Source: Pseudomonadota bacterium (lineage in GTDB: Bacteria > Bdellovibrionota_B > Oligoflexia > Oligoflexales > Bin106). From it: DNA of 24,950 nucleotides. The notes under the pieces were generated by a model. That model had not been told where the DNA came from and did no database searches. It saw only the letters and a program-made list of their open reading frames with translations. Positions 3 to 24,950 of the stretch are shown one piece after another. Position numbers and translations under genes: made by a program. How positions within the stretch are numbered: position 1 is the first letter of the stretch; each line of letters starts with the position of its first letter. The stretch spans positions 1 through 24,950 of the forward strand of contig JAPOQT010000124.1 in NCBI GenBank assembly GCA_026710525.1, written 5' to 3'.

Positions 3-608
3 AGCCACCGAAGTGACTTGGTTATTATTAAACGTGATTTCTGATTGACTCTGTAAATAACCTTTAAATAATAACTGTTTAAGTAGTGGTTTTACCAAGG
101 CATTAGCCTGGGGAGATGCCACATAAGCATCGATGGCGTAACGTAAAATATTAGTTAAGGGAAATTGCCTGGCAGATAACTTGATTTTAGCTGGTAAGGT
201 GTTGCGACGGAAAAGATCAACCAACCGGAACTGAACCTCAAGATCCAAATAGCCCGTCTTCGTTTTCTTACTATTTTTTTTACTATACAACTGAAGTTGC
301 AGTGTGAGGCGGCCAATGAGAAGATGGCTTACTTTTAGCTTGGTGGCTATTCGATGAAAACGTAAACTCTCGCGATTTTCGCCAGTGGTTTGTTGGTGTT
401 GTTCTAGAACCACGCGACTGAGAGAAATAGTAAGTGGTAAGCCTACCGATAGTTTTTCTATTTCCACCGGTTGACCCAGTTGTTCTGAAACTTGCAAGAT
501 TAATGATTCTTTAATCAGTCCAAAGGGAAAGGTAATCAAGATAAAAAGAATCATAAACGCCACAAAAGAAGTGAGCAATGTGGCTATGAGTAAAAAGCGT
601 TTTGTCAT
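3..608 (-). CDS. gspN: Type II secretion protein GspN-like, partial (3' end beyond left edge); not in the ORF track
   Basis: Manual translation from ATG at 608 is open to the window edge: MTKRFLLIATLLTSFVAFMILFILITFPFGLIKESLILQVSEQLGQPVEIEKLSVGLPLTISL... It has an N-terminal TM ending in 'ITFPF', like the 'xTFPy' motif of delta-type GspN, and lies directly downstream of gspL-gspM. Confidence 0.75.
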   Translation of the reverse strand, partial: MTKRFLLIATLLTSFVAFMILFILITFPFGLIKESLILQVSEQLGQPVEIEKLSVGLPLTISLSRVVLEQHQQTTGENRESLRFHRIATKLKVSHLLIGRLTLQLQLYSKKNSKKTKTGYLDLEVQFRLVDLFRRNTLPAKIKLSARQFPLTNILRYAIDAYVASPQANALVKPLLKQLLFKGYLQSQSEITFNNNQVTSVA

Positions 609-646
609 GGTGCAGCAAAGTCATTCGGCAAAAGAGTTGATAAAAT

Positions 647-1303
647 TTATTTCGTTAAGTAACCACGGACAGAGACTTTGGTATCAAAGTAGAGCTTCGT
701 TTCGTAACGGGCACGAATCGATAAGTGACTCACACGCAAATATTGTTCACCTTTTTCCAGGGCTGAAAGATATTTAATCATTTTTGGTAACGAAATATTA
801 TCCATGACAACATCAACCTTCACCGTGTTTATTTCTGTATGAAAAAGATCACTATCGTTTAAAGGAACAATCTTTTCGCCGAGGCTAGCTAAACTCACAT
901 CCATTTCTTTCGATATTTTTTCAAAATAACTCTTAAAACCAGATATGTTTTTAGATTTTTTACCAACGTCTCGAAGCACGCTCTCAAACTTGCTATTTGC
1001 TACCTGATATTCGGTCATTAAGCCATTAAATTTTCGGTGCGCCTGTAAGCTGTCATATAGCTCTTGGCGTAATCCATTGACTCCTTTGATGTAAAGTAAG
1101 CTGGCAAAAACAACAAAAAATAAAATCATAAATAACCCGCCAGCAAGCATGAGCTTCTGTTCCCTAGGACGAAGTTTCTGGAAACTATCAATGAGGAAAT
1201 CAAGGCGCTCGTTGTTCATACCAAAGACAACGACACTGATTTTATCACCTATCTGATAGATACGAGACTTAAGGAAGTCAAAAGTGTTGCTTAAACTATT
1301 CAT
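647..1303 (-). CDS. gspM: GspM/PilO-like inner-membrane platform protein
   Basis: 'LRPREQKLMLAGG' before a single TM matches the GspM 'L.pREr.ll' motif, followed by a coiled region and a C-terminal ferredoxin-like segment ('KMIKYLSALEKGEQYLRVSHLSI'). It lies between gspL and gspN. Confidence 0.7.
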   Translation of the reverse strand: MNSLSNTFDFLKSRIYQIGDKISVVVFGMNNERLDFLIDSFQKLRPREQKLMLAGGLFMILFFVVFASLLYIKGVNGLRQELYDSLQAHRKFNGLMTEYQVANSKFESVLRDVGKKSKNISGFKSYFEKISKEMDVSLASLGEKIVPLNDSDLFHTEINTVKVDVVMDNISLPKMIKYLSALEKGEQYLRVSHLSIRARYETKLYFDTKVSVRGYLTK

Positions 1304-1329
1304 ACAATATTTTCTATGATGATATTAAG

Positions 1330-3003
1330 TTATAACAAAGCATCGGGAGTGAATACCGATTCGATGGCAAAGGTAATCACTTTGCCGTCAGTCCCTGGCT
1401 TTGAACCACTGTTTTTCTCTGTGACACCATTAAAATTCGGATGTTTACTGATAAGATCTCTGATTTTCACCACGGAACTATAACCATCTGTTTCACCTTG
1501 GAGGACAATCTTTCCTGTGCTATCGGATTGTATCGAAAAGTCATAGAGAATAATATCAACAGTAATGTCAGGTGGGATAATTTCTGAGAGAATCATTAAC
1601 GCTTGTAATGCAGGACTCCCTGCATTAGCATAGACAAAATTATCCACGGACGTCTGTTTTGCTGAAATCTGGAGTTGTAAATGGTTTTCAACATATTTGC
1701 GCACAGCAGGAAATGATTTCATTCTAGCTAGTTCTTTCCCTTTTGATGGTTCGATTTTGAGAAATTTTTGACGATAACTTTTTTCGAATTTGCTCACCTG
1801 ATGATGGTAAAAAATACCTTGGATAATATAGGCAAAGATCATTAAACAAGCGATGGCAGAAAACCAAAGAGTTGTTTTAGAGAACACCTTGAGAAAGGCT
1901 TCGGAATCTTGAGAATAAACAAACTCATCCCTGCGTAAATTGATCCGAGACATTTTTTTCTGCCCTGACACAACCCTTAAACCAATGGCGACTGCTTGGG
2001 GAATAATTTCACCATGTTGTTTGATGGAGTCACTAATGTGTAGGTCAGAGAAGGATATTTGACTAAATTCTAATGGTAGTAGCATCTCTCTCTGTAAGTA
2101 TTGGGCAAAACCTTTGAGCTTACTGGTACCCCCCGAAAGATAAACACGGGCGATAGGTCTTTTTTCCAGGCTTTTAAAAGCGAGAAGAGTACGAGCAAGG
2201 TCCTTAGGCAAGCCTTGGCTAGCGATACCAAAGGTGCGGGCAATGGCGAGCTCTTCCTGAGAAAGTCCTAAATCTTCGCCTCCTGTTTTACTAGCGATAC
2301 ATGAGACCTCATGCTTTATTTTTTGTGATTTTTGATATGACACTTCAAGATCTCGTGCCAGCACCTCTGTGAGATATTTTCCTCCTAAATTCAGGGTGCG
2401 AAACATTCGTAGTTTTTCACCTTCCATAATACACATGGAAGTTTTCTCATGACCAACGTCTACTAGGCCATACAACTCATCCTCGGCTACTTGAATATGA
2501 GGGGTGAGATTAAACAACGACAGTGAATCGACATCAACTACCCTAGGGTCAATATTCACCCTATTTAACTGGGATAAAAAGTTGGCCATTTTGTTTTTTT
2601 GTAGCATCACCACCAAGACCTGGGAGCCTTGACCATTCTTGCTGAGAATTTGATGATCGATGATCATCTCATCTAAACTAAAAGGCACGAGGTCTTCAAC
2701 CTGAAACCTGAGTGCAGCAGAAATTTTACGGGGATCAGAAAAAGGAAGTTGTAACATTCTTGATGAAATGTATTGACCTGGCATTGCGGTAACAATACGA
2801 TCAGCTTCGAGCTTATTTGATTCAAATAGCTCTTTCATCGTTTGAAACACTAATTCTTCTTGGGTTAAATGAGAGGCACTATCTGATGCGAGAGGCAGCA
2901 CCTCTTCATAAAAATGGTCGATTTTATAAGAGCTGAGACTACTGGTAATTTCAACAGCTTTAATCGAGTACGAGCCAATATCGAGGCCTACGACTTTGAG
3001 CAC
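1330..3003 (-). CDS. gspL: GspL of delta type: PilM-like actin-fold cytoplasmic domain, TM, PilN-like periplasmic domain
   Basis: PilM motifs 'VGLDIGSYSIK', 'VDVGHEKTS', 'VYLSGGTSKL'; 'INLRR' before a TM at about aa 378-398; C-terminal 'IVLQGET' PilN-like segment. GTG start with AAAGGAG upstream. Confidence 0.8.
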   Translation of the reverse strand: MLKVVGLDIGSYSIKAVEITSSLSSYKIDHFYEEVLPLASDSASHLTQEELVFQTMKELFESNKLEADRIVTAMPGQYISSRMLQLPFSDPRKISAALRFQVEDLVPFSLDEMIIDHQILSKNGQGSQVLVVMLQKNKMANFLSQLNRVNIDPRVVDVDSLSLFNLTPHIQVAEDELYGLVDVGHEKTSMCIMEGEKLRMFRTLNLGGKYLTEVLARDLEVSYQKSQKIKHEVSCIASKTGGEDLGLSQEELAIARTFGIASQGLPKDLARTLLAFKSLEKRPIARVYLSGGTSKLKGFAQYLQREMLLPLEFSQISFSDLHISDSIKQHGEIIPQAVAIGLRVVSGQKKMSRINLRRDEFVYSQDSEAFLKVFSKTTLWFSAIACLMIFAYIIQGIFYHHQVSKFEKSYRQKFLKIEPSKGKELARMKSFPAVRKYVENHLQLQISAKQTSVDNFVYANAGSPALQALMILSEIIPPDITVDIILYDFSIQSDSTGKIVLQGETDGYSSVVKIRDLISKHPNFNGVTEKNSGSKPGTDGKVITFAIESVFTPDALL

Positions 3004-3053
3004 GACAACTCTCCTTTAATCAACCAGACACCACTTGATCACAAGTTTTTCAA

Positions 3054-4313
3054 TTAACCAGAATGATTCTTCCAGTATAACACATCATACGCCGTCCCCC
3101 TTTTATTCGTTTTCATAAACTGGGGAGATAGACGTTGAATAACGCTTTCAATAACCTTTTGAGTATCGCCTGATTTACCAACACTCTTAATACGGAAAGT
3201 ATTCGATGCCACGCCAAACCAACGGGAGCGATCTTCATCATCTTGTTTCTCATAACAAAGAGATTCTCCTAAGAATTTTTCGACTCCGAGTTTATTTGAG
3301 GCCATAACTTTTCTCGCTTCTTGATCAGCGGTAAAAGTCCTAACAAAATTCTCATAACAGTCGGTTGTCATTTCTGGAAATAAACACTGCAAAAGTTCTC
3401 TGGAGACAGTGTTAATGTTTAAAAAAGGCTTTTTTGCCAGCTCACCACGAGTGAAATTACTATATTGGTTAGGAATAGGGAAGACGGTGATAAATGGTGA
3501 AAATACGGCGTGTATCTGGTAGTCCCAACCAGTGACTAGTCTGATTTGATCAACACTCTCAAGGGGATGATTTATTGCTTTATAAGGTGGATCATTTTTT
3601 TCATAGGGGCCGTTCTCTGAGGAAAGACCAGATTGGACACGGACTTTTTTATCAATATCAATAAAATCAAACACTCTGTAGGCCATTTCATCGGCAGAAT
3701 AACCTTTGTCTTCAAGGAAACGTTGTTCAACAGGGCAAGAAAACAATAAGTTAAGGGCACGAATAACCTCAGACCCCATGCGAGATGACTGTAACATACT
3801 GAGATTGATCCGTGAGGTCTCATCTTCTGTGTGTAAGGTAAAACTACCGCCTAAGTCTCTGAGTTTTTGAATCACGTCACGGTGATTAAAATCTGACAAA
3901 CCAAACATGTCAACGATCATAGTGAGCATATTGCTCTCTTCGCCGCCAAATGGAATCTCGTTAAGCATGGTCCAAATATCCCCGGTACTATCGGTGAGTG
4001 GTTGTTTCACAGTCTCTTTCATAGTGAGGTCAAGACCATAGTCAATGGCAAGGAGGAATGCGCCGAGATTTTGTCCGCTCTTAGCGAGCATTTCAGCTCG
4101 AGAAGAATCTTGAAAATTCATGGTGATCCGATGAGCCACATGAGATGTCACTATTAAATCAGCCACAAAAGTAATCATAAAAGCGATAATTGATAGACTG
4201 AGGATAAGGGAGATACTCTTTGATGATAGAATACCGTCGCGCAAGGATAATAGTCGAGAGCGTACTCTTATGGCAGAGTGGATGTGATGCCTGTTTTGTC
4301 GTAAGCGGAGCAT
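3054..4313 (-). CDS. gspK: Type II secretion minor pseudopilin GspK
   Basis: Hydrophobic pilin-like helix 'ISLILSLSIIAFMITFVADL' and GspK motifs 'EDETSRINL', 'VFDFIDID', 'NHPLESVDQIRLVTG', 'LNINTVSRELL'. It follows gspJ. Confidence 0.85.
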   Translation of the reverse strand: MLRLRQNRHHIHSAIRVRSRLLSLRDGILSSKSISLILSLSIIAFMITFVADLIVTSHVAHRITMNFQDSSRAEMLAKSGQNLGAFLLAIDYGLDLTMKETVKQPLTDSTGDIWTMLNEIPFGGEESNMLTMIVDMFGLSDFNHRDVIQKLRDLGGSFTLHTEDETSRINLSMLQSSRMGSEVIRALNLLFSCPVEQRFLEDKGYSADEMAYRVFDFIDIDKKVRVQSGLSSENGPYEKNDPPYKAINHPLESVDQIRLVTGWDYQIHAVFSPFITVFPIPNQYSNFTRGELAKKPFLNINTVSRELLQCLFPEMTTDCYENFVRTFTADQEARKVMASNKLGVEKFLGESLCYEKQDDEDRSRWFGVASNTFRIKSVGKSGDTQKVIESVIQRLSPQFMKTNKRGTAYDVLYWKNHSG

Positions 4314-4322
4314 GTTTTCCTA

Positions 4323-5072
4323 TTATAATCTTAGGGTCTTAGTTTTATCTTTTAACTCGATGAATCGTCGTGCCCAAGGGAGTAAAACGATGGTTCGTCT
4401 TTCAGCAAAAGCACCAGGCTCATTCACATCCATAATGCTGTTTTGAGCACTAGGATCATCACTTTCAGGGTCGGTAGGATATGCTCGCACCGCCACCCTC
4501 ACAAGACGAGGTATCGACTGTTTAAAGTCAGATTTTTCTGTATCCCAAGTACTGAGCCAACCGTCTCCGTTCCACATTTCAAATGTGAATGATTCAATAC
4601 CTTCAACCACCAGTCTGGTTGTGATTTCACCATCAAAACCCAGGGTCATTTCGCCGCGAAATAAAGCTAGTCTGCCAGGAAAACGCTCACTCTCTTTGAC
4701 CTCATACTCTACAGTAATGAGTTCACCCCTTTGGGCGTCTCCATAGTTGTTCTGGGCATTCATGGTAGTAAATGATACGGTTGTTTGGCCGCCAAAACTG
4801 GTTACTTTAAAAAACGTATTGGTCACACCATCCATGATCATATGCTTATCGTAATTCACTGACAGCATATAAGTATGTTCTAAATCTTTTTTCATCATAT
4901 GCATGGCCGTATTTAACCGAGAGATCACCTGTGTTTGTTCACTAAGGCCTAAACGCATATCAACACTCCCTCGCATCAAACTGCTAATGGCAATCACCAT
5001 AAATGCTAACAGGGAGATCGTAATGAGGACTTCCAGTAACGTAAAGCCTTGCTGCTGTTTGTGAGTTGCCAT
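4323..5072 (-). CDS. gspJ: Type II secretion minor pseudopilin GspJ
   Basis: Canonical class III signal 'QQG|FTLLEVLITISLL' and C-terminal 'W...WD...IPRLVRV' GspJ motif. Confidence 0.85.
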   Translation of the reverse strand: MATHKQQQGFTLLEVLITISLLAFMVIAISSLMRGSVDMRLGLSEQTQVISRLNTAMHMMKKDLEHTYMLSVNYDKHMIMDGVTNTFFKVTSFGGQTTVSFTTMNAQNNYGDAQRGELITVEYEVKESERFPGRLALFRGEMTLGFDGEITTRLVVEGIESFTFEMWNGDGWLSTWDTEKSDFKQSIPRLVRVAVRAYPTDPESDDPSAQNSIMDVNEPGAFAERRTIVLLPWARRFIELKDKTKTLRL

Positions 5073-5073
5073 C

Positions 5074-5787
5074 CTACTCTCCTTTAGGTAGATCAGTTAT
5101 GCCAGGCACCGGTGCTGCTTTATTACTGTTTTTGTTGTTGCCTTCGTTGTTATCTGATGGTGGTTGGTTTTTTTTGTCCGTCTTATTATCAGGTGGTATA
5201 GCTTGATCATTAGGCGATTCCGAGGTGTTACCCACTGCCGATGACTGCATAGCAAGAATTTGCATATCCAGAGCCCGTTGATTAACGAGGATCATACTGA
5301 GGGATGTGGATGATTTGCGAGCCCCTTCAGGCCATAACACTTCCACAGTGGCTATTTTAATCATATGATCATTAAAGATTTGCTTGATTTGGTCAGTGAT
5401 CAAGTTAGATACTGGTGGTCCTCCCTCTTGGTTGTTCTGTCCTTCGCCAGTTAGCATGGCAAAAATGGGCAGTTTCCATTCTTCACTGCTAATTTTATAG
5501 GAATAATCAGTAAAGATTTTGGTTGCGTCTTTGCCCCAAAAATCATCACCAATCTTTTTTTCATTAACGGTTAACTCTAGTTCACTAAAATCCCTGGTTT
5601 GCCATTCATACTCAAGTCGTGCCATAATACCCTGAGCTAGCCATATCCCTTCGGATAGACGACGACTATACTCCACCGAATACACGACTTGTCCTTGAAT
5701 ACCGGTCACTTGGAGTAACACCACAGCTAACATGCCCACGGCAATCACAGTCTCAAATAAAGAAAAACTTTTTTCTCCGTTACTCAT
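5074..5787 (-). CDS. gspI: Type II secretion minor pseudopilin GspI-like, with low-complexity C-terminal tail
   Basis: Class III signal 'EKS|FSLFETVIAVGML' with E+5, first gene before gspJ-K, and 'ATVEVLWPEG' resembling the 'v.V.W' GspI end motif. Confidence 0.72.
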   Translation of the reverse strand: MSNGEKSFSLFETVIAVGMLAVVLLQVTGIQGQVVYSVEYSRRLSEGIWLAQGIMARLEYEWQTRDFSELELTVNEKKIGDDFWGKDATKIFTDYSYKISSEEWKLPIFAMLTGEGQNNQEGGPPVSNLITDQIKQIFNDHMIKIATVEVLWPEGARKSSTSLSMILVNQRALDMQILAMQSSAVGNTSESPNDQAIPPDNKTDKKNQPPSDNNEGNNKNSNKAAPVPGITDLPKGE

Positions 5788-5979
5788 TCACAAACTCTTC
5801 ATACGGTGGAGTCATTCATATGACTTCTGTTAAGATGATGGGTAGTAGTCTTACTGCCAAAGCTTCTTATGACATTTTAGCTATCAATGGTGGTGAAAAA
5901 AATAATGTATTCATATCAATTGACGATAACCTTCATAGTTAATGTATGGCTGTTACATTCATTAGGAGCAATTTAAGCT

Positions 5980-7740
5980 ATGGTAAACTTAAAGTATTTT
6001 ACCACTGTGTTTATTATATACCCTCTTTTTATTCTTCCACTCGCATCATGTAAAAGTTTCTCCTTTAATGAGCAAAAAGGGGAAAACAATTATTCTCTCC
6101 AAGGTCTTTTCGATAGTCAGCATCTCCTCAGACTGAAACAGGTTGATGGTAGTGCTATATTGTTTCGTTTTGAAGTTTGTCCTTTTGGTGCCAGTAAGAA
6201 TCAGATTCTTGAACAGTATTGTGTTTCCGCTCTGCAAACAAATAGTGGCGATGACATTATATTTTCTGTGGAAATGATTCAAGAAATGAATTTGACGGCA
6301 AGGGAAAAGCAAGAATTGAATGACCTGCACGTCTTGTGGATGGGATATCGAGACGATATAATCGATCTCTCAGGGCGTGAGCCAAGGGAGCTAGTAGCCA
6401 TTCTTGGTGGCAGTTTTACTTTAGGCAATTTTGCCGGTTATGCCACTCATGCTGCTTCGTACAAGATGAGTTCAGATCATTATTTCAAACGGTTTGGTGT
6501 ACGAAACGTTGAACAGGCTACGAAGGAGCTTAATCAAGTCATTAAAGAGCTGAAACTCTTTGGTTTGGATGTGTCCACGGACTTAGAACCAACACTCAGC
6601 ACCCAAGAATTTTGGTACCTTAAAGAAAACAGCACGAATAAATTTTCAGTAAAATTTCACAAATCCCATTACCCTGCCATCAGTGCTCTCTCTCAAAGCG
6701 GCCTTAGTACTGATGAGCAAGTGTTGGCAGTCGTTAGAAATTTTGTCAGAAACAACTCATTTCAGGAGTTGGTTAATGCGAATATGTATGAGCGTTTTTT
6801 ATCGTACTATCAATTGAAATATTCAACTGTTTTAGTGACACCAGGCATGCCCACTTTTTGTGGTGTTAGTTGTTTAGAGCAAGCTTTCAAGCAAGATCCG
6901 AAAGGTATCCTAGATGAACTTGATCGTTTTATTATGGATCGAGGACGGGTTAAAAAATATTTCAACGAGAGAGTTTTAACCAAACTGGGTCGTATGGAAC
7001 AACTTCTGGAGGCTGTGGCAGTTAAGAGGCCAGCGAATCTCGCAGGGATGAAATTGACAACGGGGAATATGTTGAGGAGAACGCGTGCTTTTGCGATATG
7101 GAGTGGAGGTGCCGCGTTAGCTATCATGGCCCTAGAAAACAATAACTTTATGAATAAGGCAAGTAGCGCTGTTAATACGGCTTACAATAAGGTCGTCGAT
7201 CGTGTTACAGGTGGTAATACCCTCGATCCCAATTACGCCGATAACAGAGCCGCGAATAATAATACAGGGGGGGCATTTTCAACCATGTCTGACAAACTAA
7301 CAGTGATGTTAAAAACCCCTGACACCATGAATGCTCTATGGAGCAATGTTAGTGATAAGAATCAGCCAACCGAGGCGATCACATCGGTACTTAAAGCTTT
7401 TGTTCTTTATGGGGGAACTTTGTTTAGTAGTGATGCAATAAGTAATTACTGTTTACCTGAATCATCGAATCAAGTTTATTCAAAAGTTTGTTATTTTCCA
7501 GAATCAGATCAATTAGCAGCGCAGGATGATGTGGCAACAGTACCGTTTAAGCAACTCTCATCAACTCTCCTATCTAAGCCTCAACCTAGTCAACAGGATG
7601 CGACAGCCCCAGAAGGAGATCAAAAAGAAGGCATCGACAGTAGTACTCAAGTGCCAACCATAAAATCAGAATCAGATAACGAATCCACAGATATTGATTT
7701 GCCAGAATCTGAAGAGGTTTTGTTACCGATAAGCGAGTAA
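5980..7740 (+). CDS. Unrecognised lipoprotein, paralogue 1 of a tandem family
   Basis: Lipobox LAS|C (Cys24, codon 6049-6051), AGGAG upstream, and full-length similarity to 8534..10069 (HLLRLKQ, FRFEVCP, YCVxALQ, RFLxYYQ, SDKL, VLKAF, YCLPE, KVCY). Confidence 0.85.
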   Translation: MVNLKYFTTVFIIYPLFILPLASCKSFSFNEQKGENNYSLQGLFDSQHLLRLKQVDGSAILFRFEVCPFGASKNQILEQYCVSALQTNSGDDIIFSVEMIQEMNLTAREKQELNDLHVLWMGYRDDIIDLSGREPRELVAILGGSFTLGNFAGYATHAASYKMSSDHYFKRFGVRNVEQATKELNQVIKELKLFGLDVSTDLEPTLSTQEFWYLKENSTNKFSVKFHKSHYPAISALSQSGLSTDEQVLAVVRNFVRNNSFQELVNANMYERFLSYYQLKYSTVLVTPGMPTFCGVSCLEQAFKQDPKGILDELDRFIMDRGRVKKYFNERVLTKLGRMEQLLEAVAVKRPANLAGMKLTTGNMLRRTRAFAIWSGGAALAIMALENNNFMNKASSAVNTAYNKVVDRVTGGNTLDPNYADNRAANNNTGGAFSTMSDKLTVMLKTPDTMNALWSNVSDKNQPTEAITSVLKAFVLYGGTLFSSDAISNYCLPESSNQVYSKVCYFPESDQLAAQDDVATVPFKQLSSTLLSKPQPSQQDATAPEGDQKEGIDSSTQVPTIKSESDNESTDIDLPESEEVLLPISE

Positions 7741-7764
7741 CATCAGTATTTGAGAGTTCTCAGC

Positions 7765-8410
7765 TACGATCAAACGGCAGTCTATGACCTTCCAGGTCTT
7801 TGATGGTTAGCATATTTATAAGACTCAAGCAGGTTGATGATCACAAACATTGACAGAATTAAGGCAAATAAGACGGTGTGTACTGCTTAGTGCTTGTTTA
7901 TCAAAGAGCTTGGCCCAGTGTGGGAAAGTTTCAATCGTTTCTTCACCATGAGAGAAGGACTGAATACAGTGATATTCTTTGGGATCCTATGGTAGATGAT
8001 ATTTCTCCAGATAGAGCATGACAAAATAGTAAATTTTGGCACTCAAATAAATGAGGTATTTGACGAAACGAACGTTAGTGATTATCTCGATGACGACTGG
8101 TGTTATGCTAGTTTATTTCGCTCTTGAATTAATAAAGAAACCTGATATAAAGCTATCCAGAGTGGCATAACGTCACCACCAAAATTTCTTGATAAACTGA
8201 GGTGAATGCTTGATGAAGTCACGAAGGTAGTGTTGATCAACCAGCAGAGCAGGTATTTTTTGTACTCAAAGCCTTTATTTTTTATGAGTACTCTGTTTGA
8301 TAGTGACGGCTAAGTCCCTAGTTACTGTTTACCGGAAGTCTCATCTGATGGGGCGGCGGCACCATGGAAGGTAATTTCACTATCACCTATTTTTTCTGCT
8401 AGTAATCAAC
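7765..8410 (+). pseudogene. Collapsed, frameshifted third copy of the flanking lipoprotein family
   Basis: Family motifs occur in the same order as in the intact copies. 7802-7842 aligns 36/41 nt to 8651-8690, with CAG to TAG and an indel. 8060-8128 encodes LTKRTLVIISMTTGVMLVYFALE, 8191-8208 DKLR*M, 8262-8285 VLKAFIFY, 8320-8340 SYCLPEV, then AAPWKVIS. Confidence 0.85.
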
Positions 8411-8533
8411 GAGAACAACAGAAGATGGTAGCTGAAAAAAGGGTAACTAAAAAAAGTAACAGTAGCATTATGAGATGCCAATCGACTAAATTGGTATCAG
8501 AATCTTTAAAGTATAGACGAGTATAAGACTAAA

Positions 8534-10069
8534 ATGAATCCCATTACCACACGAATTACCCATATCTTATTTCTCCTATTAGTAGTTACATCATGTCGAA
8601 TGTTACCATTCGAGGATCAAGAGGATCGTTATGCTCTCCAAGCTCTTTTTGATGGTCAGCATCTTTTAAGACTGAAGCAGATTGATGATCGTGGGACGCG
8701 ATTTCGTTTTGAGGTGTGCCCACTTGCTAATAATACAACCAGGATTATTGAGGAGTATTGTGTGGCTGCTTTACAGGCTCAATCAGGAGCAGATATAAAT
8801 TTTTCCCTGGAAACAATTGAGCAAAGTCACCTGATTCAAAAGGAACAACAAAGAGCGAACATTTTTCATTCTTCATGGCTAAAATACAGACAGCAAATGG
8901 CAGAGCTCAATCCCACTGCCCTAGCCTTAACCCTTGGTGGTGGTATCGTGCTCACAGATCTTGGTATTTATGCCGCGAGATTAGCTGGGCACGAGTCCCA
9001 ATTAAATCAGTATTTTAAACAGCTTGGTGTTCGTAGCACTGATGAGGCAGCTCAAGAGCTTAACGAAATTGCGCGTCAACTTGAGTCCCTTGGTTGGAAT
9101 CCAAAGTGGATGGATTTTGGGCCAACCATAACTGAAAGGGAAATCAGGTCCTGGCAAAGTAGTCCTAACAAGAGAATGATCATTGAAAATTTATTTTCAG
9201 AGAAATTTGACCAAACATATGGTGATGATATTCGTTTGAGAAGCCTTGATGGAGCCGGTGAGTATCTCGAGGGAATTTTACCAGTAGTAAGGGATTTTGT
9301 TAGGAAAAATTCAGTTAAAAGCTTAATCAATGAAAGTTATTATAATCGCTTTTTACACTACTACCAAATGAAGTATCACCTGCCAGACTATTATCGTAGT
9401 ATTGTTGATTTTCAAGCTTACCGAGTACGTGCCTCTCATCGTTTAGAGCAAGCATTTATTAATAATCCTATGGATATATTAAGTGAATTAGAGCTGTTAG
9501 TTAAAGATAGGGGAGCTGTTAAAAGCTATTTAAGTAGCGAAATATTAGGAAAACTGAATCGATGGGAAATGCTCCGCAATGTTGTTGTGGCAAACCAACC
9601 ATCTAAGGCGAGCTGGGTAGCAGGTAAAACTGGCAGTCTTATGAAGCGAATATCTGTGGTTAGCTTGGCTACCACTGGCGCTATGCTAGCTTTCCTCGCC
9701 CTCGAAAAAAACAACGACTCCTCAGAAGAGGATGTCTTGAGTGAACAAATACCACTGCCAAGGATCTCTGACAAACTGGTGATGCTAAATAATCCTCAAC
9801 AATGGGACGCGTTATGGCGTCACGAGGCTGGTGCTAACCAATTCATAGACCAAGTAACTCCTGTATTAAAGGCTTTTGTTTATTACGGAGATTTGATGCT
9901 GGATGGTGGTGGTGATATTGCTAGTTACTGTTTGCCTGAAGTCATATCACATCAAAGCTACGCTAAAGTTTGTTATGGGGTAGTATCAGCTGTTAAAGCT
10001 CAAGGTGATAAAACAGCGGCACCATTTAAACAAATTTCATCAGTGCCTCTTTCTGCTCCTCGCGATTAA
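8534..10069 (+). CDS. Unrecognised lipoprotein, paralogue 2 of a tandem family
   Basis: Lipobox VTS|C (Cys21, codon 8594-8596) and the same conserved blocks and four non-lipobox cysteines as 5980..7740. Confidence 0.85.
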   Translation: MNPITTRITHILFLLLVVTSCRMLPFEDQEDRYALQALFDGQHLLRLKQIDDRGTRFRFEVCPLANNTTRIIEEYCVAALQAQSGADINFSLETIEQSHLIQKEQQRANIFHSSWLKYRQQMAELNPTALALTLGGGIVLTDLGIYAARLAGHESQLNQYFKQLGVRSTDEAAQELNEIARQLESLGWNPKWMDFGPTITEREIRSWQSSPNKRMIIENLFSEKFDQTYGDDIRLRSLDGAGEYLEGILPVVRDFVRKNSVKSLINESYYNRFLHYYQMKYHLPDYYRSIVDFQAYRVRASHRLEQAFINNPMDILSELELLVKDRGAVKSYLSSEILGKLNRWEMLRNVVVANQPSKASWVAGKTGSLMKRISVVSLATTGAMLAFLALEKNNDSSEEDVLSEQIPLPRISDKLVMLNNPQQWDALWRHEAGANQFIDQVTPVLKAFVYYGDLMLDGGGDIASYCLPEVISHQSYAKVCYGVVSAVKAQGDKTAAPFKQISSVPLSAPRD

Positions 10070-10086
10070 GCTGATGGCGAAGAGTA

Positions 10087-10158
10087 AAGCTAACTCAAAT
10101 CAAGAAACTCAGTGGTCACAAGAGTTATCGTAGATATAGGGTGACATTGAGTTAGCTT
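10087..10158. repeat. Perfect 12-bp inverted repeat with 48-nt spacer between convergent genes; possible terminator or structured RNA
   Basis: AAGCTAACTCAA (10087-10098) and TTGAGTTAGCTT (10147-10158), with an inner GTCAC/GTGAC pair. Confidence 0.6.
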
Positions 10159-10196
10159 ATGAGCGTTATCAAAAAAGTCACAGCAACGTTGGTCAA

Positions 10197-11174
10197 TTAA
10201 GGCCCGCTGAGTGCCCTGAGATAAGGAGAATCACTCGAGAGAATAAAGTTGGTATCCGTTTTCAAAGTGTCCTGGTAAGAATTCAAGGTTTCTTGAAAAG
10301 CGTAAAAATTAGCATCTTTTGAAAACGCATCAGCATAGGTTTTAATCGCTATAGCCTCTGCTTGACCTTTAATTTCTTGGGCTTTTCTATAGGCCTCAGA
10401 TTCAATTTCTTTGAGCTTGAGGTTTAATCGTCCAGAGATTTTCGCTGCTTCCCCTTGACCAAAAGAACGGATACGGGCAGCAATTTTTTGTCTTTCAGTA
10501 ATCATGCGCTCATAAACTTTTTGTTCCACTGATTCTTCGTATGACACCCTGCGCAGTTGCACATCGAGGAGCTCAATACCAATATCTTCTAAGGCTACCC
10601 GGGCACTGGCGATGATTTTTTTCGTTAATTCTTCGCGACCAGTGGTGATTCTTTCGATTTCACCAGTAATATCATCATGACCAAGTTCAACTTCAGTCAC
10701 TGGCAAAGGTTCCTCTGCATCCTTTGCTTTGATGATTTGATCAATTTTCTCAATAATCAGATTAGAGTTTCTCACGGTTTCAACTAGGTTGTAGCTAGAG
10801 ATCATATCCCGGGTAACTCCATCAAGAATACCATCAAGTCGGTTAGCAGCTGTTCTTTCATTTTGCACCGTTTGCGCAAAACGAATAACATCTTTAATGC
10901 GCCACCTCGCTGTGGTGTCAACCCAGATATATTTTTTATCTTTGGTGGGAATTTGTTCGGCATCCCCATCCCACTGTAATATCCGTTTATCAAAGGTTCG
11001 AACGTCCTGAATAAAAGGCATTTTAAAATGTAACCCTGATTTTGTAATCGGCTCGCCACGAATCTTACCAAACTCAGTAATAAAAGCCTGACGACCTTCT
11101 TCCACAGTAAAAACTGCACTAGAAACGGTAATGAAAACGAGGGCCAAAAGAACGGTGATGATTTGGAAATTCAC
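10197..11174 (-). CDS. hflC: FtsH protease modulator HflC (SPFH domain)
   Basis: 'GLHFKMPFIQDVRTFDKRILQWDG', 'VYERMITERQKIAARIRSFG', 'FYAFQETL'. It follows hflK. Confidence 0.95.
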   Translation of the reverse strand: MNFQIITVLLALVFITVSSAVFTVEEGRQAFITEFGKIRGEPITKSGLHFKMPFIQDVRTFDKRILQWDGDAEQIPTKDKKYIWVDTTARWRIKDVIRFAQTVQNERTAANRLDGILDGVTRDMISSYNLVETVRNSNLIIEKIDQIIKAKDAEEPLPVTEVELGHDDITGEIERITTGREELTKKIIASARVALEDIGIELLDVQLRRVSYEESVEQKVYERMITERQKIAARIRSFGQGEAAKISGRLNLKLKEIESEAYRKAQEIKGQAEAIAIKTYADAFSKDANFYAFQETLNSYQDTLKTDTNFILSSDSPYLRALSGP

Positions 11175-19910: not shown

Positions 19911-21521
19911 TTAATCTCCTGATTGTGGCTGGTAGATATTGGCGGGCTGTGTTTGGGGTAATCGCCGATAGAAAGGGTAGGTCACAGTATGAGAGCTGTT
20001 AGGAGCTAAGGTGATAAAACTCACGGTTTGTTTTTTTTGCTTGAAGCGGGTGCTTGTTTTTATCGATTCATAGGAAACAAGCTGGTATTCACCTGGGAGT
20101 AACATAAGGTTACGTTCCTTGCTGTCACCAAGATGACTCGAGTTGTGAATCGAGTTAGGGAAACCTTGGCGTGTATTGTCATCTAACACTTCTAAGCGAA
20201 TGAGCTCGGTTGCTCGATTGTTTTGGAAAGTGACTTTTGGTGTTAATGTGAGTGAGCCGAGAACAACTTCTTTGTGTTGTCCTGGTCGTGCGTTAACAGC
20301 TTGCTTAATACCGTGAGCACTATGTAGTTGTACGAGAATTTTTTTGGCAAAAAATAGTATCGGAACGCCAACCGAGCCTTGAGTTGGTTCATCAGTTATT
20401 GATTCGTACAGGGTGAGTCCTATTTTAGGACACAACTGTTGTTGTTGCCAAGTGCTGGCCTCTCGGGTGCACGGGGAATGGATAGTGATCGTATTGAGAG
20501 GAATAGTCAATTGTTTACCTGCTACCACAGAGACCTGAATTGTTTGATGACCACCAGTGAGCTTAATTTCATAGGTACCTGGTAGCAGAGGATAGGTTGT
20601 ATTGAGACGGAGGGTGTGGTGTGTTTGCTCAGTAGGGGATCTTAGGGAAAAAGTCGGCGGCTCAGCATTGAAGCGGGTCACATAGTCTAGTGGTGTTTTA
20701 GCTGGTGTTGCCACCCTTAGTGCGCCAAGGGTAATTTCTTGGGGAGTTTGTGCCTCAAGAGTAACGGATTTTGTGCTGCCATTCACAGCGATCCGGTATT
20801 CACCTGGTAAGAAGTAAATCCATCGCGCTACCGGTAGTCCCGCTGTCATAGTGATACTTGCCTTGTCTTGACTGAGAAAAAACTTGGTTTTTTCGTTATT
20901 CGCTGTGTTAATTCGAAGGGCAGCTAGATCAATATGAGTGCTCCTTTCAGAGAGATCTAAGGTCACAGTGAGAGGCATCATATGGATAAAAATCTGATCA
21001 ATATTTGAGAGTAGATACAGCTTAAAAATACTAGTCAGTTTTTGGCTAAAAACAGGGCTACCAAACCTTTCACAGAGGATCTGAAACATCCCATCCTCGC
21101 CGTCATAATCAACGGGGGGTTGATGAAAAGTGAGTTGTTGTAAGGTGAGCTCTTGAGTGTGTCCTTTTTTTACGGTAACACTGGCATGTGAGCAGTCAGC
21201 TAATATGAGATATTTCCCTGGGGATACGAGTAAACCAGGAGAACCGAAGATGTCCGAGGATACTTCAATGCTCTTAAATAGCTCATGGCTACCCCTGTTA
21301 GTGGTGAGCGCCCTTAGTTTGGTAATAAAATTTTGTTCACGTTTATAAATAGAAAGACGATGATAGGACTGACGAGCCGAGCTGTTATCCGCTAATTTAA
21401 TAGAGATATAGCTCTCTCTTGTTGTGATAGAACAGCCTGGGAGTAGTGGCGCGAGGAGAGCGAGATAAATAGCTAGGCGTCTGAGCCAACTGCTGAGATG
21501 TGGTAATAAAATCTGTGTCAT
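19911..21521 (-). CDS. Unrecognised lipoprotein with repeated 'PGxY' beta-rich modules
   Basis: Lipobox LPG|C at Cys30; four motifs VSPGKY, FLPGEY, LLPGTY, LLPGEY; stop codon 3 nt before the ccmA start. Confidence 0.75.
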   Translation of the reverse strand: MTQILLPHLSSWLRRLAIYLALLAPLLPGCSITTRESYISIKLADNSSARQSYHRLSIYKREQNFITKLRALTTNRGSHELFKSIEVSSDIFGSPGLLVSPGKYLILADCSHASVTVKKGHTQELTLQQLTFHQPPVDYDGEDGMFQILCERFGSPVFSQKLTSIFKLYLLSNIDQIFIHMMPLTVTLDLSERSTHIDLAALRINTANNEKTKFFLSQDKASITMTAGLPVARWIYFLPGEYRIAVNGSTKSVTLEAQTPQEITLGALRVATPAKTPLDYVTRFNAEPPTFSLRSPTEQTHHTLRLNTTYPLLPGTYEIKLTGGHQTIQVSVVAGKQLTIPLNTITIHSPCTREASTWQQQQLCPKIGLTLYESITDEPTQGSVGVPILFFAKKILVQLHSAHGIKQAVNARPGQHKEVVLGSLTLTPKVTFQNNRATELIRLEVLDDNTRQGFPNSIHNSSHLGDSKERNLMLLPGEYQLVSYESIKTSTRFKQKKQTVSFITLAPNSSHTVTYPFYRRLPQTQPANIYQPQSGD

Positions 21522-21675: not shown

Positions 21676-22800
21676 ATGAGCCAGCCCAGTCCCCCACATA
21701 CTCCAACACAGGATAGTCAGCAAGTTGATCGAGAGCAACACATTATTGAATTGAAACAATTAGTTGATCATATTAATTCAGGGACTAAGTTCTCCCGAGA
21801 TGAACATCTAGATCATCTTAAACTACTCCATGATTTTGAATGCTGGCATCATTATTTCACCAAAGTTGACCTGTTGTTAGCAGATGTTGATCAAAGGCAA
21901 GCTAACTCTATTCTCCAAGATAGTCTATCAGTTTGTTTCAATTTTATTGAAGACAAGGCAATGGCTGAAAAGTATTTGCTCAGAGCCTTACAGCTAGTGG
22001 ATATTTCTTTTCCTGAATTTTGGCGGGTCATGATTTTGAAGCCAATGAAGATTAAAGATTTTGCCCTTGAGGCTTCTTTACTTGAGTCGATAGTTCCCCA
22101 TTCTCAGGGTGAATTCTTGGAGGAGGTCTTAGCACGACTGGCGATACTTTACGAAGAAAAACTGTATTCAGAAGACCATTTACTTAAAACCTTGTCTCGA
22201 CTCATAGAAGCGAACCCGCGTAACCATAAAGCCTTAATTTTTTATAAAAACTTTTATTCACAGCGACATCATTGGGCGAAGGTTGAAGGGTTCCTAAAGA
22301 CGTTAATTGATGAGTTGGCAGAAACATCAGAAGAGTATTTTTACCGTCTTGAATTAGCTAAGATCTATTTGCATTTTCTCGATCAACCTGAAGAAGCAAC
22401 AGAGATTATGTCAGGGGTGACGAGTGATGCTGGTTTTGAGATGATTAAAGTTAAGTTTATGTTATTTTTTCATGCGGGTGAGTTTCGACAAGGGATTGAT
22501 ACTCTGAAGGTCCTTGAACAATTAGCTACGGATGGGAAGCAACTAGCCAATGTTTATTTCCACTATGCGACATCTTATGCCAGTCTCAATAATCATGCAA
22601 AATCTTTTGCTTATTTTGAAAAGTCATTACAGAAAGATGTGAGCATGTATGTGATTCGAAAGTACTGGCGATCGTCGCTACAGTACCGTAATTTCCATGG
22701 TATTCTTTCGACACTTGAGTATATTACCAAGATCACAGAATCATCAAAGCAAAAAACCAAGGCTCTTACGTTAATCAATAAGTATCTTGGCCACCTGTAA
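21676..22800 (+). CDS. Alpha-helical TPR-like protein
   Basis: Repeating helical patterns 'LARLAILYEEK', 'RLIEANPRNHKAL', 'RLELAKIYLHFLDQPEEA', 'NVYFHYATSY...AYFEKSLQKD'. No signal peptide seen. Confidence 0.7.
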   Translation: MSQPSPPHTPTQDSQQVDREQHIIELKQLVDHINSGTKFSRDEHLDHLKLLHDFECWHHYFTKVDLLLADVDQRQANSILQDSLSVCFNFIEDKAMAEKYLLRALQLVDISFPEFWRVMILKPMKIKDFALEASLLESIVPHSQGEFLEEVLARLAILYEEKLYSEDHLLKTLSRLIEANPRNHKALIFYKNFYSQRHHWAKVEGFLKTLIDELAETSEEYFYRLELAKIYLHFLDQPEEATEIMSGVTSDAGFEMIKVKFMLFFHAGEFRQGIDTLKVLEQLATDGKQLANVYFHYATSYASLNNHAKSFAYFEKSLQKDVSMYVIRKYWRSSLQYRNFHGILSTLEYITKITESSKQKTKALTLINKYLGHL

Positions 22801-22806
22801 TGTCTG

Positions 22807-23928
22807 TTGTCGGATCAACCACGATCATCGAGTAGAGTTGTGACCTTTGTTCATATGCCCTTACCTAAAAATGTGACAGCAGTGCCAGACTTCTATGGGG
22901 CACTGAGGGCTCTTGATAATAAGATGACAGTCCTTCATCCAGAATACTCTTTTGTTTCTTGGTTAGGGCCTCATGATGAGCAGGAAGGACTTAGTTATAT
23001 TGCGGGCGACCTAGTTCATATCAACCAGCATAGGCAGAGTATGGCGATGAATGTTGTTGATGGAAGTCAGTTAGCTACCTACTCTTTTTATCAGAATTAT
23101 TTGAGGGCAACAAACAAGGTTTCCTATGGTCATCTCTATGGTGGTTATAGTGGCTCATGGGATAGCTTAGCAGAGAAGTATTACGTTCGTCTATTGCTAG
23201 CGGTTGATGCTCAACTACTCAGTCGTTACCTTGATTTTACTAGTAGTCTTCTTAGTCATGATTTGAATAGTAGTTTGTTAAGACCAAGTCAATCGGTTGC
23301 TCCTTATGTTGTTTTAAATGGTAGTGGTGAAGCTTACTTGTTTCATTCGACCGAGAGTCATATGAAGCATTGTCGGAGTAAATTGCAAGCTTTGATTCGA
23401 CAAAATCATAAGAAGAAAATCACCATCAATGCCTATATCGATAAGTTCTTTTTTCCTCAAGGGATGACTTTAGGGGGGATGCTCCCGCCATCTCTTGGGG
23501 CTAAATCCCGTCACGATTACCACGTTTTTCCCAAAAATACCAATGAAGAAACCAGGTTCCACCCCATGTCATTTCAGCAACAAATCAACTCAACATGCTG
23601 GCATAAGGTGGATCAATGGTTTGAGGCGGTGAAAAAAACTTTGGCATCTGTTCAGAGCAGAGGACAGTCGTTACCGATACAATTATTTGTTGGTACTCGT
23701 AGTTGTCTTTTAGATTATTATTATTATGAGCAACTGGGTGATATTATTGACAAGGCTAAATTTAGGCAGTGGCATCTGAAAAAGTGGTATCTTGGCTACG
23801 ATCCATGGGGTTATTTTTTCTCTTACTTGCATCATGCCTACGGGAAGACAGAACATGGTTGTGCCTATGTTAACAGCCACCTTGTTGGCACAGGAGAGAT
23901 ATTAACTTGTCATCCAAGAGAGACGTAA
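22807..23928 (+). CDS. Highly diverged thiolase-superfamily (FadA/FadI- or FabH-like) protein lacking canonical catalytic residues
   Basis: Ordered motif echoes by eye: 'VVTFVHMPLPK' ~ VVIVDGVRTPFGK; 'LYGGYSG' ~ xAC(S/A)G; 'LLLAVDAQLLSR' ~ VVVAGGxExMSR; 'LNGSGEAYLF' ~ LNDGAAAVLL; 'LGYDPWG' ~ LGHPxG; 'VGTG' ~ xGGG near the C-terminus. Confidence 0.5.
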   Translation: MSDQPRSSSRVVTFVHMPLPKNVTAVPDFYGALRALDNKMTVLHPEYSFVSWLGPHDEQEGLSYIAGDLVHINQHRQSMAMNVVDGSQLATYSFYQNYLRATNKVSYGHLYGGYSGSWDSLAEKYYVRLLLAVDAQLLSRYLDFTSSLLSHDLNSSLLRPSQSVAPYVVLNGSGEAYLFHSTESHMKHCRSKLQALIRQNHKKKITINAYIDKFFFPQGMTLGGMLPPSLGAKSRHDYHVFPKNTNEETRFHPMSFQQQINSTCWHKVDQWFEAVKKTLASVQSRGQSLPIQLFVGTRSCLLDYYYYEQLGDIIDKAKFRQWHLKKWYLGYDPWGYFFSYLHHAYGKTEHGCAYVNSHLVGTGEILTCHPRET

Positions 23929-23958
23929 CGGGGACACCATTAGCAGAAAGGTCCTCAC

Positions 23959-24950
23959 GTGGCAAAAACAACCCAAAGTAAATCAGAATGCTGGGAGCTG
24001 AACCGAGATGGTAAGCAGCATTATTATCTCGCTGTGCCAGACATGGTTTCGTTTTATCTGCCTTCTGAATCATGGCGGGTTTTTCAAACAACGGTTCGTC
24101 GTATTTTGGCTAACGACTCTCACTCCCTCAGTTTTGTCTGTTTTCAGCCAGCGAGAGATCAGCACCGACTTTTACTATCAGCCGGGTATTTACCAAGTAA
24201 GCAAGCAGCCCATTTGAGTGAGTTAAGGCATTTCTTCCGCTTTCTTTACGCGCAGAGAGATCGTTTAACATTTTGGCTAGCTTCATCGGTGACTGACTCT
24301 TTTTTTGAGTTAATGCTCTGTTGTCAGAAAATTTGGTTTTATCAACCAACTGTGTTTCTTGGTTTTCCTGAATGGGAGAGGGGTTTTCCGCCTTTAGGTG
24401 GTGTTTGTGAATTAAGCTGGCATGCAGGAGATCTGAAAAAAAGCTTTTGGCAGAAAAACAAGATATTCCGACCGTGGATGGCATCTGAATCAACAGCCCT
24501 TGGCCTTGAATGGATTGCAGAGCCCGTGTTTTATCAGTGGCTAAAAGAGCAACAGATGACCCCAGGTACTGAGGCAGGTCTTAAAACCAAGAGTCATTCG
24601 GTCGGTTACCCATTTCCTTGGATATCCTTATTATCAGGGCAGAAGGCGAATAAAGGCGGTTGTGTGGCAAAACCTGAGTGGTTAGCTGCCATCTTTAGTC
24701 AAAGTCCTAACATGAGGCCCCAGAAAAAAATAGTTCACTCATTTACGGAGGTATCATGGGATATTTTGTGGTACAGAAAAGACCAAGAGAACAGTCATAG
24801 TGATTATGATCACTGTCGTGATTTGCTCAATGTGTGGTCTGAGGTGTTACATTTGGGTGCTACCCCAAGTTCCTGTGATCAAGGAAATAGTCAGTTACTA
24901 TTCAGACACTTTGGTTCCGAGTCATCTTTGCTGTTAGATCATCAGGATCA
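23959..24950 (+). CDS. Degenerate crotonase-fold protein resembling the N-terminal enoyl-CoA hydratase domain of FadJ/FadB; partial, not in the ORF track
   Basis: GTG at 23959 with AGAAAGG upstream, open for 330 codons to the window edge. 'FFELMLCCQKIWFYQPTVFLGFPEWERGFPPLGG' matches the crotonase motif 'GLELALACxxR...LGLPEVxLGLLPGxGG'. Confidence 0.68.
   Translation, partial: MAKTTQSKSECWELNRDGKQHYYLAVPDMVSFYLPSESWRVFQTTVRRILANDSHSLSFVCFQPARDQHRLLLSAGYLPSKQAAHLSELRHFFRFLYAQRDRLTFWLASSVTDSFFELMLCCQKIWFYQPTVFLGFPEWERGFPPLGGVCELSWHAGDLKKSFWQKNKIFRPWMASESTALGLEWIAEPVFYQWLKEQQMTPGTEAGLKTKSHSVGYPFPWISLLSGQKANKGGCVAKPEWLAAIFSQSPNMRPQKKIVHSFTEVSWDILWYRKDQENSHSDYDHCRDLLNVWSEVLHLGATPSSCDQGNSQLLFRHFGSESSLLLDHQD

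Follow-up and report, generated by a model that had tools for sequence, protein, structure and literature searches.

Two lipoprotein genes and the remnant of a third

The stretch analyzed here (the window) is the whole of contig C124 (JAPOQT010000124.1; 24,950 bp), part of a 1.82-Mb metagenome-assembled genome (MAG) that comprises 328 contigs and is 85.8% complete. Between positions 5980 and 10069, it carries the genes for two paralogous lipoproteins, P0001 and P0002, along with the remnant of a further copy, and the family to which they belong is the subject of this work. A first-pass annotation of the window had described two full-length paralogues with lipoboxes, and both open reading frames (ORFs) are present: P0001, with 586 amino acids (aa), is encoded at 5980–7740 and P0002, with 511 aa, at 8534–10069, each on the forward strand. 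The two proteins share 37% identity over ~540 residues (E = 2e-105).

P0001 begins with a signal peptide and lipobox (aa 1–24, ending in LPLAS-C24-K), followed by an N-terminal domain (N-domain; aa ~36–125) with the Cys pair C67/C81, a first hydrophobic segment (H1; aa ~138–156), a central helical domain (aa 159–364 by profile envelope) with an extra pair, C294/C298, a second hydrophobic segment (H2; aa 369–385), a C-terminal domain (C-domain; aa ~437–525) with the pair C491/C504, and a polar and acidic tail (aa 533–586). In P0002, the signal peptide and lipobox (aa 1–21, ending in VVTS-C21-R) lead into an N-domain (aa 32–124) with the pair C62/C76. H1 of P0002, the Gly-rich and weakly hydrophobic helix ALALTLGGGIVLTDLGIYA, lies at 8912–8977 (+; aa 127–148), the central helical domain spans aa 150–370, and H2, the hydrophobic helix ISVVSLATTGAMLAFLAL with K/R just before it, lies at 9644–9703 (+; aa 371–390). 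The C-domain (aa 410–511) holds the pair C466/C480. The two Gly/Ala-rich hydrophobic segments and the N- and C-terminal Cys pairs are thus found in both proteins as first described, and the Cys pairs recur across the family. Two locally hypervariable patches had also been proposed: P0001 aa 282–298 (5% identity) and 347–366 (15%) are indeed low in identity, with an indel at 397–436, but such stretches are unremarkable for two sequences at 37% identity.

The tandem array is real, although the copy number is three and not the two originally counted. In the 794-bp gap between the two genes, we found family profile matches in all three forward frames that are collinear and cover family positions 362–393, 427–461, and 459–484. 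At the nucleotide level (blastn), 7768–7842 aligns to the P0002 N-domain with 75% identity, 8065–8345 to H2 and the C-domain, and 8356–8409 to the 3' end of the P0002 gene. The central part has shrunk from ~950 bp to ~220 bp, with the central domain deleted, and frameshifts and stops interrupt the remainder. The segment at 7768–8409 (+), collinear with P0002 and most like it, is by these alignments a decayed third paralogue.

Upstream of the array, an AGGAG motif lies at 5964–5968, 11 nucleotides before the P0001 ATG. A blastn search of the genome showed no second copy of the intergenic region at 5788–5979, between the reverse-strand gspI-like gene and the P0001 gene, and a consensus scan of this region found no promoter-like site. 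Across the locus, promoter and terminator sites were no more numerous than in shuffled sequence, and an Rfam scan of 5700–10300 gave no match.

A lineage-restricted and strongly expanded family

To determine the extent of the family, we searched 1.84 billion representative proteins with a profile of five full-length paralogues (E ≤ 0.001), which matched 133 proteins, many of them in arrays on one 2.69-Mb ENA contig. When the N-terminal 150 residues were used as the query of an iterative search, ~40 ORFs were recovered in the source genome. A profile built from short members gave 41 matches in the source genome and 54 in a sister species of the same genus (genome G001), together with 6 matches in each of three genomes from one neighboring family, while 126 other genomes of the class contained zero family members. 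Members form tandem arrays, with six consecutive copies on contig C78, and often lie near contig ends. We sought a recurrent neighbor gene across the ~31 family loci in the source genome and found none. The P0001/P0002 family is undescribed, lineage-restricted, and strongly expanded.

The first-pass annotation had suggested that the family may be diversifying, for which our findings give no support. The five full-length paralogues of the source genome share 22–37% pairwise identity, so the duplications are old. The stretch is found in sponge metagenome runs, and when we compared contigs from four such runs dated 2014 to 2018, it was identical except for one single-nucleotide polymorphism (SNP).

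The bacterium that carries the family has a small genome, lives in association with sponges, and is of the Bdellovibrionota/Oligoflexia type. For the CNNM protein encoded near the array, identity to the counterpart is 61% in "Proteobacteria bacterium bin106," 44% in an Oligoflexales MAG, and 33% in a Bacteriovoracaceae MAG. Bin106 was recovered from the sponge Aplysina aerophoba and has a 2.9-Mb genome with 39.6% G+C, in which 42% of genes are annotated (PMC5649159). About 2.5% of the reduced symbiont genome studied here goes to one family that matches no library. Little is known of the envelope proteins by which sponge symbionts, which are uncultured, associate with their hosts, and a large family confined to one lineage offers a concrete candidate.

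The 2.69-Mb ENA contig (ctg6916l), from a metagenome, represents a related and apparently closed genome, with many members in arrays and a VKOR-DsbA fusion gene near them.

Two conserved ends and an optional central domain

Family members share a common pattern. The lipobox Cys is followed by two Cys at about residues 60 and 75 and by a first hydrophobic segment at ~130–150; a second such segment lies ~75 residues ahead of another Cys pair, which falls within the final 25 residues (YC.P...C). Across 63 long members (P0002 numbering), C62 and C76 never vary, and conservation at C21, C466, P468, and C480 is 90% or more. The four domain Cys are likewise invariant across 50 short members, and in both sets conservation of the lipobox Cys is 90% or more. 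The short-member profile matches the two ends of P0002 separately, at 8543–8974 (E = 1.3e-28) and 9641–9982 (E = 2.1e-6).

Members differ in the interval between H1 and H2, which ranges from 4 to 584 residues and accounts for the spread of member lengths from 260 to 840 aa. An insert between two hydrophobic helices, first noted for the two proteins of the window, is therefore a real and general feature of the family: in short members, H1 and H2 are joined by a link of 4–60 residues, and long ones carry a discrete domain of ~200 aa. This central domain is homologous in 60 of the 166 family proteins. Together, these alignments define a predicted modular build that consists of a lipobox, a disulfide-bearing N-domain, H1, an optional helical domain of ~200 aa in zero, one, or two copies, H2, and a disulfide-bearing C-domain. 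The N- and C-domains together, and the central domain, would thus be two new domains for structural study.

One metagenomic relative, P0077 (680 aa), has two tandem central domains (aa 137–331 and 359–565) between H1 and H2. Two other members (C139:460–1989 and C274:6227–7750) carry a Cys-rich insert, with 10 extra Cys spaced ~10 residues apart, directly after the N-domain Cys pair. Since these inserts precede the hydrophobic segments, they do not settle the topology.

Searches for known relatives and structure models

None of the libraries that we searched (Pfam, NCBIfam, PDB, AFDB, and the ESM Atlas) returned a relative of the family, which bears out the initial impression of an unrecognized lipoprotein family. 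Pfam and NCBIfam gave no match to P0001 or P0002, Pfam gave nothing recurrent across 113 members, and a word-indexed protein search with P0002 returned only the query itself. A profile search of PDB produced sub-threshold helical matches only.

We next turned to structure prediction. An AlphaFold2 (AF2) model of P0002, built with 63 sequences, reached a pLDDT of 76.7 and a pTM of 0.51. It places strands at residues 43–64, helices at 127–164 and 356–392, and strands at 464–483, and it sets each Cys pair on adjacent strands (C466/C480 in the C-domain). The β-rich N-domain and the all-helical central domain are predicted with confidence, whereas the helices at 127–164 and 356–392 are of low confidence; a model of a short member has the same end domains. 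Foldseek searches with both models gave nothing above noise (best E of 0.2 against PDB and 0.02–0.13 against AFDB clusters, with TM scores below 0.25) and pointed to no known family. A wide VIA-align search with both models reached Z scores of at most 7, and these covered the two-helix hairpin only. The ESM Atlas returned nothing by features and, by structure, TM scores of at most 0.26. We also considered whether the family could be identified with the ClyA/YaxA/XaxA α-pore-forming toxins and rejected this, as there was no significant similarity in sequence or fold.

Export, lipidation, and topology

Both proteins show the basic n-region, the h-region, and the [LVI][ASTVI][GAS]C motif of a lipoprotein signal (LAS-C24 and VTS-C21). 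The source genome encodes LspA (PF01252; contig C272, 108 bits) and also has VKOR. Since disulfide-type Cys pairs occur in both end domains, these domains are probably extracytoplasmic, and the chain between them would then cross a membrane either zero or two times. The Asp+2 sorting rule is an Escherichia coli rule and cannot be assumed for this host.

To assess where the intervening chain lies, we examined its Cys content. Cys makes up 0.10% of the stretch between the Cys pairs, compared to 1.29% of the ORFs of the genome, and is absent from this stretch in 104 of 117 members. In the central domain, there are 7 Cys in 10,757 residues: 56 of the 60 copies are Cys-free, and six of the seven Cys fall in CxxxC or Cx5C pairs. 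Control sets gave 1.38% for putative cytoplasmic proteins and 1.0% for putative exported ones. The two hydrophobic segments also differ from each other, with 22% Gly and 1.2 GxxxG motifs per segment in H1 and 12% Gly and 0.24 motifs in H2. Insertion energies are approximate and carry no position weighting; on this scale, the median was +5.6 for H1 and +2.0 for H2 (+4.2 and +2.6 in P0002), while real transmembrane (TM) helices from the same window scored −2.9 to +1.5.

At a probability of roughly 45%, our preferred reading is a lipoprotein of the envelope that is exported in full, with its H1/H2 hairpin lodged in one of the envelope membranes; a two-pass protein of the inner membrane comes second. 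Outer-membrane lipoproteins with glycine-zipper hairpins of two TM helices (2TM) are a documented kind, and this precedent, the depletion of Cys, the properties of H1, and the pair of long, antiparallel, low-confidence helices in the AF2 model all favor full export.

The inner-membrane arrangement, with two true TM helices, periplasmic N- and C-domains, and a cytoplasmic central domain, is nevertheless a serious rival, if on balance somewhat unlikely. Such a protein could link a binding module in the periplasm with a second module in the cytoplasm. The AF2 model has two long, antiparallel, low-confidence helices of ~37 residues between confident domains, a dumbbell with the end domains and the central domain at opposite ends, in keeping with a two-pass protein, and both Cys pairs lie outside the H1–H2 interval. 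For H1, the fit is poor: its Gly content is too high and its hydrophobicity too low for a stop-transfer segment (approximately +4 to +6 kcal/mol), and its flanks show no charge asymmetry. H2 suits the inner membrane better, since the 12 residues before it average 3.2 K+R and 0.4 D+E and those after it 1.35 and 1.6; a basic flank before H2 and a neutral or acidic one after it fits the positive-inside rule. The segment is also quite hydrophobic in many members (Kyte-Doolittle 2.0–2.8), although in P0001 its hydrophobic stretch extends over just 16 residues. Finally, a cytoplasmic domain that is nearly Cys-free, with what Cys it has in pairs, would be unusual against the 1.38% cytoplasmic average in this genome.

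The charge distribution around H2 and its hydrophobicity accordingly count against full export, and four further points weigh on the same side. The Cys depletion was measured among related sequences, so it is non-independent evidence. The Pfam glycine-zipper models match none of the 113 members at E ≤ 0.1 and neither P0001 nor P0002 at E ≤ 1. LolA, which G001 of the same genus does have, was not found in the source genome, itself 85.8% complete, and no RNA runs are listed.

H1 and H2 could alternatively be buried core helices of a soluble periplasmic lipoprotein that does not insert into a membrane. The weak hydrophobicity of H1 and the exported-protein composition are consistent with this, but buried core helices are usually predicted with confidence, whereas AF2 confidence is lowest in H1 and H2 (~50–60, compared to 85–95 in the adjoining domains). 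Given also that an H1–H2 loop of 4–584 residues is hard to fit with a fixed core, we consider a soluble form unlikely.

For the favored, fully exported lipoprotein, we infer compartment, membrane insertion, and role as follows. Sec and LspA would process the precursor, and the whole polypeptide would be exported and lipid-anchored at its Cys. The β-rich N-terminal domain and the C-terminal β-hairpin domain of ~100 aa would each be stapled by one disulfide. H1 and H2 would pair as an antiparallel hairpin embedded in, or lying against, one of the envelope membranes (most likely the outer membrane), and the variable central module would be borne at the hairpin tip. The family would have expanded by tandem duplication, and its role is probably to shape the symbiont's cell envelope or surface. 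A more specific version, in which the hairpin spans the outer membrane and shows the Cys-free helical domain (zero, one, or two copies) at the symbiont surface while the disulfide domains stay periplasmic, strikes us as rather improbable. If true, it would be a new mode of surface protein display, and the 40–50 paralogues would form a host-interaction repertoire.

Comparison with known lipoproteins

CyoA-type lipoproteins have two TM helices after the lipidated Cys and a C-terminal domain outside the cytoplasm. The family resembles them in its lipobox, its two hydrophobic helices, and a C-terminal domain that is likewise predicted to be non-cytoplasmic. Unlike CyoA, it has a folded domain of ~100 aa ahead of H1, an H1 that is far less hydrophobic, and a large insert between the helices, which would be a cytoplasmic loop in the inner-membrane arrangement, and there is no sequence similarity between them.

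In Borrelia, Leptospira, and Mycoplasma, host-associated bacteria carry multicopy lipoprotein families that are specific to their lineage. Dozens of divergent paralogues, tandem arrays, a small genome, a narrow taxonomy, and pseudogene copies are features that our family has in common with these. On the other hand, it has no sequence relation to them and a different domain build, and we saw no variation mechanism or strain-level change.

The 2TM glycine-zipper lipoproteins of the outer membrane include SlyB, YfgH, OsmB, and YiaD (bioRxiv 10.64898/2025.12.22.696046). Like these (PF05433 type), members of the family have an N-terminal lipobox and then a Gly/Ala-rich, weakly hydrophobic helix pair, predicted as a hairpin, beside a folded extracytoplasmic domain. 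They depart from the SlyB/YfgH type in lacking a Pfam match, in having the hairpin flanked by two disulfide-stapled domains, in a hairpin loop of 4–584 residues that often holds the helical domain of ~200 aa, in an H2 less Gly-rich (12%) than H1, and in numbering ~40–50 copies per genome and not a few. The family would thus extend the small set of lipoproteins with helical membrane hairpins.

Adjacency to type II secretion genes

The array is divergent from genes of a type II secretion system (T2SS), as the first-pass annotation stated: gspI-like, gspJ, gspK, a PilM-like gspL, gspM, and gspN occupy 3–5787 on the reverse strand. The same annotation had raised the possibility that the lipoproteins are T2SS substrates. 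In the source genome, the gsp operon is split after gspH, with gspC to gspH on contig C233. In G001, by contrast, gspD-E-F-G-H-I-J-K-L-M-N form one contiguous run (G001:C145:30000–49000) in which gspH overlaps the gspI-like gene, and we found no family gene in this 19-kb T2SS stretch, nor in 18 kb around the SPFH genes of G001. Only 1 of the ~31 family loci in the source genome adjoins gsp genes, and the others have unrelated neighbors. A contiguous run without a family gene in the sister species, set beside the split operon here, argues that the adjacency is a species-specific rearrangement that lends no support to a substrate relation. As judged by gene order, then, the array lies beside the T2SS genes through rearrangement and not through a functional link, and a tempting connection to type II secretion is removed.

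This outcome also bears on whether members of the family could act as effectors that are secreted or displayed at the surface, perhaps as T2SS substrates, and that insert their hydrophobic helix pair into a host or prey membrane in the manner of an α-pore-forming toxin. The bacterium is host-associated, the family is large, and its helices are rich in GxxxG; sub-threshold profile matches over the H2 region to YaxA (E = 0.098) and XaxA (E = 0.8), and XaxB at rank 15 of the Foldseek search (E = 0.76), point in the same direction. None of these toxin matches is significant, however, and the T2SS adjacency is missing in the sister species and at ~30 other loci. A lipid anchor speaks against free release, and no strain-level variation was seen. 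We therefore regard an effector role as very unlikely. The T2SS-dependent lipoproteins PulA and SslE offer a parallel in that a lipoprotein gene lies beside T2SS genes, here in the source genome only; unlike in those cases, the linkage is not conserved, and the family has no similarity to either protein and no enzymatic domain.

Other genes in and around the window

Downstream of P0002 lie two SPFH genes, a CNNM/CorC gene, ybeY, trmB, a thioredoxin gene, and ccm genes. An ORF of 536 aa at 19911–21521 (−), beside ccmA/B/C/E, has no match in Pfam or NCBIfam. Three forward ORFs follow at 21676–24950 (374, 373, and >330 aa), of which the first gives a weak TPR match only, whereas Pfam matches neither of the others. 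At the opposite end of the window, gspN is of the Leptospira type and is truncated by the contig end, and gspL encodes a PilM-like fusion (PilM_2 plus T2SSL). The tail of contig C233 is repeated on contig C196, with 99.6% identity over 227 bp. In G001, an SPFH/Band 7 fragment with three internal stops (C82:53125–53388) lies 3.5 kb downstream of the intact orthologue and is probably a pseudogene.

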